Assembly (NCBI RefSeq): GCF_011045215.1
Contig: NZ_CP049201.1
DNA length: 64,000 bases
Source: Escherichia coli
Lineage (GTDB): Bacteria > Pseudomonadota > Gammaproteobacteria > Enterobacterales > Enterobacteriaceae
Direction: 5' to 3' (one strand)
The notes beneath the pieces are model-generated. The model ran no database searches and had not been told where the DNA came from. It was given only the letters and a program-made list of their open reading frames with translations. Positions 51,604 to 51,654 of this stretch are shown here, piece after piece (the first letter of the stretch is position 1; each line of letters starts with the position of its first letter). Both the position numbers and the translations under genes were made by a program.

Positions 51604-51654
51604 GGATGTCTGAAATGATATGTAGTTTTCTGTACGACATCATTTCAGACATCC
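51604..51654. promoter_or_regulatory. Perfect 16-bp inverted repeat (ggatgtctgaaatgat / atcatttcagacatcc) with a 19-bp spacer
   Basis: Read directly; lies in the AT-rich intergenic region between the TpsA start and the divergent fimbrial locus. Confidence 0.5.

Follow-up and report, generated by a model that had tools for sequence, protein, structure and literature searches.

What does a perfect inverted repeat do in the control region between an adhesin operon and a divergent fimbrial operon of Escherichia coli? We addressed this question in a 64,000-nt stretch of E. coli DNA (the window), in which an earlier note had described two 16-bp arms, 19 bp apart, within an AT-rich divergent control region of ~1.4 kb, and had proposed that they form a dimeric operator, a recombinase site, or an RNA hairpin. 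The locus is O-island 47 (OI-47) of E. coli O157:H7, which lies between ycdU and dgcT and is among the large islands of the O157:H7 lineage. On one side of the repeat are otpA and otpB, a characterised two-partner secretion pair, followed by 14 further co-oriented genes (acpS, a reductase, a dehydratase, an ACP, ketosynthases, an ABC transporter, and a malonyltransferase among them), and on the other side is an ORF of 207 aa that heads the fimbrial operon. For OtpA, neither a function nor an inducing condition is known, and the hairpin formed by the repeat is an entry point to the regulation of its silent operon. Judged from its sequence and conservation, the repeat is a stem-loop element of a familiar kind, conserved and previously uncharacterised, and it most likely represents a regulatory hairpin that is selectively maintained in the otpA control region.

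A perfect inverted repeat in the otpA control region

The two arms are complementary at 16/16 positions, with the 19-nt spacer that had been described, at the coordinates collected in Table 1. The intergenic region (51341-52732, equivalent to Sakai 1348686-1350075) measures 1392 bp at a GC content of 28-39%, in agreement with the AT-rich control region of the earlier description. Counted upstream from the start codon of otpA, the hairpin takes up nt 264-314, and 1.08 kb separate it from the divergent 207-aa ORF. Only two perfect inverted repeats in the whole 64-kb window passed an exhaustive scan that asked for arms of 16 nt or longer and a spacer no longer than 40 nt. As the chance expectation for such repeats is 64000 x 41 / 4^16 = ~6e-4 per window, the repeat was correctly judged unlikely to have arisen by chance. 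The other perfect 16-nt inverted repeat, at 22142-22186 with a 13-nt spacer, sits, as seen in the near-identical strain GF4-3, where fragments of IS3-family and IS256-family transposase pseudogenes meet. A further inverted repeat, perfect over 14 nt and with a 17-nt spacer, has T and A runs on its flanks; it is found at 28566-28610, past a frameshifted integrase gene whose 3' end is ~120 nt away, and resembles a bidirectional terminator.

Table 1. Coordinates of the inverted repeat and of neighbouring features in the window.
Feature	Position	Strand	Sequence	Remarks
otpB (tpsB)	45820-47439	-		ShlB/FhaC-type transporter
otpA (tpsA)	47528-51340	-		1270 aa, TPS domain; first of 16 co-oriented island genes
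otpA-proximal conserved block	51341-51510	-		~80% identical to Pseudocitrobacter; presumed otpA promoter and 5' UTR
Left arm	51604-51619		GGATGTCTGAAATGAT	16 nt
Left arm, inner 11 nt	51609-51619		TCTGAAATGAT	identical in all alleles and Pseudocitrobacter
Spacer	51620-51638		ATGTAGTTTTCTGTACGAC	19 nt; length constant in all alleles
Right arm	51639-51654		ATCATTTCAGACATCC	16 nt; exact reverse complement of left arm
Whole stem-loop, favoured form	51604-51654	- (otpA-sense)		21-bp interrupted stem; dG -28.9 kcal/mol as RNA
Moderately conserved patch	51655-51727	-		directly 5' of the hairpin on the sense strand
207-aa ORF	52733-53356	+		heads chaperone-usher fimbrial operon loc6

Upon folding the repeat as RNA, we obtained -27.7 kcal/mol for the + strand (z = -6.5) and -28.9 kcal/mol for the - strand (z = -9.6), both relative to dinucleotide shuffles, while folding it as single-stranded DNA gave z ~ -7. 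The ends of the spacer pair with each other over 3-4 bp and enclose an 8-nt loop (51625-51632), and the apical stem contains one U.G pair on the + strand. In total, 21 positions are paired in the E. coli alleles, with one bulge, and ~16-17 in the related hairpin of Pseudocitrobacter described below.

Several further stretches of the intergenic region are conserved. E. coli and Pseudocitrobacter share, without a single difference, a 23-nt block at 51445-51467 (CAATAAAAAATCACGAAAAATAA on the + strand), which lies 105-127 nt upstream of otpA and is a candidate otpA promoter or operator; if it is the promoter, the hairpin would lie upstream of the transcription start site (TSS). The patch that adjoins the hairpin on its 5' side on the sense strand contains a weak CAAC-UUU-GUUG stem plus UUUUAUUC, at a place where Pseudocitrobacter has a canonical terminator-like stem. 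RNAalifold further predicted a weak AU-rich hairpin at ~51686-51727 on the - strand, upstream of the main hairpin; on scant data, a few of its pairs differ on both sides between the genera. A second conserved patch within diverged intergenic DNA lies at 52430-52525, some 210-300 nt ahead of the 207-aa ORF, with a 12-mer and an 11-mer that match Pseudocitrobacter collinearly; expression of the regulator and its fimbrial operon is probably controlled from here.

Distribution and variation within E. coli

The repeat is present in 380 of 5,426 complete E. coli genomes, at one place in each and always in an OI-47-type island, and the intergenic region forms a single collinear alignment piece in the genomes listed. 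With one copy per genome in these 380 genomes, we rejected a dispersed repeat (REP/BIME, ERIC, or MITEs) or the end of a mobile element. The repeat was absent from phage genomes, and pattern scans of metagenomes, genomes, and viruses returned known alleles or unrelated chance hairpins, the matches in other phyla and on viral contigs being unrelated sequences.

Genomes and metagenome contigs together provided six E. coli alleles. The window-type allele forms a perfect 16-bp stem, and the allele of the Res13/KV7/TB06051 clade (CGAATATC.../...GATATTCG) a perfect 17-bp stem, in which two base pairs are altered on both sides and one new pair extends the stem at its base. A one-sided transition each is found in O157:H7 (more than 300 genomes), Z1323 (L014), and 33E, and in KY204 one pair is truly mismatched. 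The three one-sided transitions give, on the otpA-sense (-) strand, U.G (O157), G.U (L014), and G.U (33E) pairs, and on the + strand C.A or A.C. The L014 allele is moreover the exact intermediate of a sense-strand series that runs from G-C (window) via G.U (L014) to A-U (Res13 clade). The sense-strand RNA of the O157, L014, and 33E alleles stays at -22 to -28.5 kcal/mol, while their + strand is down by 4-6 kcal/mol. In six of the seven alleles the sense-strand RNA is the more stable one, the exception being Res13, which is slightly more stable on the + strand. This G.U pattern and the strand stabilities lead us to lean toward RNA of the otpA-sense strand, a lean based on three events (p ~0.125).

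Variation is unevenly distributed over the element. The inner part of the left arm is constant and its outer 5 nt vary among alleles; the outer stem and the left flank are unusually variable across E. coli alleles, in an intergenic region with a mean column identity of 96%. The ~45 nt to the left of the hairpin (51560-51603, CCCCCATCCTTGCTCCTTGGGTGAT...) make up the most variable intergenic patch among the E. coli alleles. In one clade, that of Res13 (alleles L002, L005, L016, and L017), three adjacent substitutions at spacer positions 51636-51638, GAC to AGA, create the perfect 10-nt palindrome TCTGTACAGA. Such a cluster, which looks like the product of one template-switch mutation, is a signature of template switching, and hence some of the paired changes may be mutational rather than selected.

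A diverged counterpart in Pseudocitrobacter

By way of a homologue with 56% identity to the 207-aa protein, we reached a Pseudocitrobacter island that is fully syntenic, is flanked by actS, and has genes that share 78-83% DNA identity with the window. From ~170 bp upstream of otpA to approximately codon 130 of the 207-aa ORF, the two genera are not alignable by BLAST, and this Pseudocitrobacter stretch had no match in any complete E. coli genome. The hairpin is nevertheless there, as ...ATCTGAAATGAT gtgtgattccagacacaca ATCATTTCATAT..., with the arm cores of 11 nt and 9 nt identical to those of E. coli (in the right arm, ATCATTTCA is kept in both genera), a spacer of again 19 nt, and a loop of again 8 nt. 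Two such collinear exact matches occurred in 0/300 shuffles. The spacer sequence is completely different, with an apical stem of GUGUG/CACAC vs UGUA/UACG in E. coli, and the outer four stem pairs are absent. The distance from the hairpin to the otpA start is 303 vs 306 nt in the two genera, with ~95 diverged nt in between. As sequence, spacing, and position are all kept across genera, a chance or purely mutational origin of the palindrome is argued against.

The surroundings of the Pseudocitrobacter hairpin differ in one respect. On the - strand (L029 9023-9043), a canonical terminator-like stem, GAGAAACTCGCCAGGTTTCTC plus TTTATTTTAT, stands directly 5' of the hairpin on the otpA-sense strand; its E. 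coli counterpart is a 4-bp remnant at ~51660-51675 of the window. A UUUU run follows 3 nt past the Pseudocitrobacter hairpin.

At more distant tpsA loci (Kosakonia and Enterobacter-type contigs), the upstream DNA was unrelated and the hairpin was not found, and by this comparison of sequences the element is restricted to OI-47-type islands, as found in Escherichia and Pseudocitrobacter. In Kosakonia sp. H02 (L036 2278-4001), a GrvA-like regulator of the ToxR type and a YqeJ-like partner are encoded directly divergent from the tpsA homologue, a gene order which hints at the tps/lipid operon, and not LEE, as the native target of regulators of the GrvA type.

Known element classes and short ORFs

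A search of Rfam 15 gave no family at threshold, the best hit being a microRNA-like hairpin at 25.9 bits vs a threshold of 53, and the intergenic region had no match to the RfaH ops/JUMPstart element. By eye, the resemblance of the arm to Fur, Cra, LexA, CsrA, and sigma-54 motifs was too weak or not conserved. A third, 12-nt copy of the arm at 52763, which might have been an operator or the target of an sRNA, falls within a coding region, is not kept in Pseudocitrobacter, and was set aside as a coincidence. Coding explanations were rejected as well: the mini-ORFs that run through the hairpin (14-20 codons, on either strand) lack a conserved Shine-Dalgarno sequence and are broken by frame-shifting indels, the palindrome giving similar peptides from both strands, and the 66-aa ORF at 51397-51597 likewise lacks a conserved Shine-Dalgarno sequence and has its frame broken by indels.

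Published transcript data contain little from this locus, which appears silent in vitro. Among the entries listed for EDL933 Cappable-seq, covering eight conditions, there was no intergenic TSS, and the only TSS of otpA was an internal one. The Sakai small-gene, Hfq, and RNase E data showed no signal at the hairpin. No sRNA of OI-47 has been reported in the literature, and known EHEC sRNAs were rejected as the source of the hairpin, Esr41 belonging to OI-43. One RNase E CLASH hybrid, a single read, joins the otpA coding region (Sakai 1352836-1352859) with the sRNA MgrR (PMC5286369).

Covariation and a putative RNA stem-loop

We found pairing to be retained across the alleles. In a set of seven distinct sequences and 21 pairs, which includes the template-switch signature, 91% of the cells were paired vs 23-47% in slid controls, and at 4 of the 21 pairs both sides had changed with pairing kept. 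On either strand, the covariation score was above that of every one of 500 shuffles, and RNAalifold recovered the hairpin in a separate run. Compensatory changes of the sort that mark cis-regulatory RNA stem-loops are hence present, within a set of seven sequences that also carries the template-switch signature. Paired changes in the outer stem, together with self-complementary spacer ends in both genera, point to a folded single strand and not just to half-sites in a duplex.

Our preferred, if tentative, interpretation is a cis-acting RNA stem-loop on the otpA-sense strand, situated in the otpA leader or in an upstream transcript. The hairpin would be transcribed on the - strand as part of a long leader or upstream transcript of otpAB and the fatty-acid/polyketide operon, where its 21-bp stem may modulate the fate of the transcript, either through RNase III-type processing or as a stability determinant. 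Alternatively, the stem could block or attenuate transcription as it enters otpA. We propose processing or stability control of the RNase III type because a 21-bp stem has the size of an RNase III substrate, i.e., double-stranded RNA of some two helical turns, or at least ~20 bp. Of the options proposed in the earlier note, the RNA hairpin has the best support at the level of sequence, from covariation, the sense-strand G.U intermediates, and the structure shared between genera, while its effect on expression is something that we infer.

Several observations run against a simple leader RNA. The Cappable-seq entries listed include no intergenic TSS, and the promoter may lie in the otpA-proximal conserved block, leaving the hairpin upstream of the TSS. 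The terminator-like stem of Pseudocitrobacter would stop upstream transcripts before they reach the hairpin. Furthermore, the 11-bp arm cores are invariant across genera, which argues against pairing alone and suggests that the sequence itself is recognised.

A predicted NarL/FixJ-type regulator and an operator reading

The divergent neighbour of otpA encodes a candidate for such recognition. The 207-aa protein, ECs_1281, gave no Pfam, NCBIfam, or PDB sequence match when searched alone. An exhaustive profile search retrieved eight distant homologues, 3 of the 11 family members matched GerE weakly, and the family profile aligned weakly with the RcsB DNA-binding domain. The AlphaFold model that we built from the family alignment (pLDDT 82.6, pTM 0.78) had fold matches to full-length RcsB (TM 0.50-0.53), VraR, NarL, FixJ, VpsT, and EvgA. 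On the strength of this model, the protein is an unannotated NarL/FixJ-type regulator, with a receiver-like domain and a LuxR-type helix-turn-helix (HTH), from a small family that has no Pfam or NCBIfam model; the matches to RcsB, NarL, FixJ, and VraR agree with the label "LuxR-like" that the neighbour had been given. Its C-terminal, DNA-binding (HTH) half is the conserved part, with BLAST similarity between the genera resuming at approximately codon 130. Further into the fimbrial operon that it heads, the usher of DEC4E (O157:H7, L001 15457-19259) is annotated as frameshifted and an IS1203 lies within the operon, which is intact in EDL933 and Sakai.

The repeat could then be a DNA operator, which we regard as possible though on the unlikely side: 11-bp half-sites (TCTGAAATGAT and ATCATTTCAGA), with centres 30 bp apart (~three turns, on the same face), would be bound by the 207-aa protein or by GrvA, and would control otpA and/or couple the fimbrial operon to it. 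An operator would fit the constancy of the inner arms and of the exact spacer length across genera, with the spacer sequence free, as well as a distance to otpA that is constant within 3 nt, and the adjacent gene encodes a receiver-like and LuxR-HTH protein whose conserved HTH half suits the conserved half-sites. The hairpin also occurs only in island versions that carry the 207-aa gene, but this co-occurrence is confounded, as the other island types have wholly different upstream DNA. Dimers of the NarL, RcsB, and EvgA type bind inverted half-sites of ~7-9 bp that are 0-4 bp apart, against the 19 bp found here, and no further copies of the half-site exist in the island. An operator also does not predict the paired changes in the outer arms or the self-complementary spacer ends seen in both genera. 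Of the dimeric operator envisaged earlier, the LuxR-HTH neighbour and the invariant 11-bp cores therefore stand in support, while the 19-bp spacing is atypical and the paired changes are left unexplained.

A more speculative proposal, to which we assign a low probability, would combine both features of the element in a new cis-regulatory leader motif: a factor encoded on the island would recognise the sequence of the invariant 11-bp stem, either in RNA or in an extruded hairpin, and would thereby gate the normally silent 16-gene operon and couple it to the divergent fimbrial locus.

Transcript ends, template switching, promoters, and inversion

It is doubtful that the hairpin serves as a transcription barrier or transcript 3' end, which, together with the adjoining stem, would end or stabilise an unannotated small transcript or shield the otpA promoter against spurious transcription from the AT-rich divergent region. 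Such a role would make sense of the terminator-like stem and U-tract that directly precede the hairpin on the Pseudocitrobacter sense strand, of the UUUU that follows it by 3 nt, of the conserved ~70-nt patch ahead of it, and of a U-rich tract 13 nt downstream in E. coli (AUUUUUUAUCA), the motif of which is conserved. An intrinsic terminator has a U run 0-2 nt 3' of a G+C-rich stem of ~5-14 bp. We rejected this class because the stem of the repeat is AT-rich, much longer than is typical (16-21 bp), and has no U-tract beside it on either strand, with GAAUAAAAC just past the stem on the + strand and UCUAAAUUGG on the - strand. A terminator scan of 51200-52900 returned 0 sites, and the missing reports of an OI-47 small RNA and of a TSS among the Cappable-seq entries listed weigh against a small transcript as well.

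We consider it improbable that the repeat is a neutral quasipalindrome, i.e., a structural relic, such as an old insertion might leave, that is kept symmetrical by template switching and has no function. The GAC to AGA cluster of the Res13 clade, which makes TCTGTACAGA perfect, is a classic signature of this process, and the high variability of the outer stem and left flank among E. coli alleles would be in keeping with it. Template switching, however, keeps complementarity and not sequence, and leaves the identical 11-nt and 9-nt cores, the spacing, and the otpA distance unexplained, while the G.U intermediate alleles point to stepwise change.

Quite improbable, too, is an embedded promoter, in which the arm cores would serve as -35 and -10 elements (ATGATG-17-TATCAT on the sense strand, mirrored on the + strand), giving overlapping divergent promoters. 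This would account for invariant cores and for a spacer of fixed length and free sequence, and TATCAT matches the -10 consensus at 5/6 positions, but over both elements E. coli matches at 8/12 positions and Pseudocitrobacter at 7/12, too few to reach the scan threshold, no TSS is nearby among the Cappable-seq entries listed, and neither the perfect 16-17-bp stem nor its covariation is explained.

A site of recombination or inversion, i.e., a fimS-like phase-variation switch of the kind suggested by a perfect inverted repeat between adhesin and fimbrial genes, is extremely improbable and was rejected, as the arms are 19 bp apart, the search for a further arm copy with at most one mismatch found none in the island, no recombinase is encoded between ycdU and dgcT, the spacer has a single orientation in all sampled E. 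coli, metagenome, and Pseudocitrobacter alleles, and no split alignments occur in the genomes listed.

Comparison with known systems

A conserved element ~300 nt upstream of otpA and a newly recognised, NarL/RcsB-like regulator offer a handle on the switching of the otpAB/lipid-polyketide operon and the loc6 fimbriae, with a general importance that is limited by the element being lineage-restricted and found at a single locus.

If the hairpin acts as RNA, as we tentatively favour, its closest relatives would be RNase III-processed or retroregulatory stem-loops such as those of the rnc and pnp leaders and lambda sib. Like these, it has a nearly perfect, AT-rich stem of ~21 bp with a small bulge, is noncoding, and stands beside a gene, and its stem is longer than a terminator needs and lacks an adjacent U-tract. 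Unlike these, the OI-47 hairpin is known from its sequence, its Pseudocitrobacter form has only ~16-17 pairs, and the sequence of its inner stem is conserved, which RNase III does not require. With intrinsic terminators it shares a stable intergenic stem-loop, next to which a true terminator-like stem is found in Pseudocitrobacter, but it differs from them in having no abutting U-tract, an AT-rich stem of about twice the usual length, and no upstream gene to terminate. As a dyad with a conserved half-site beside a small LuxR-HTH gene that heads a fimbrial operon, it resembles the RcsB box, the EvgA site, and EcpR/MatA at ecp, whereas NarL/FixJ operators have half-sites 0-4 bp apart instead of 19, and do not need a symmetry that covaries and extends over 16-17 bp and into the spacer. 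Finally, the clustered change that perfects a palindrome and the coordinated changes in the arms are reminiscent of quasipalindrome template-switch hotspots (the Ripley and Lovett models), from which the OI-47 hairpin is set apart by a sequence, spacing, and position that are kept across genera.
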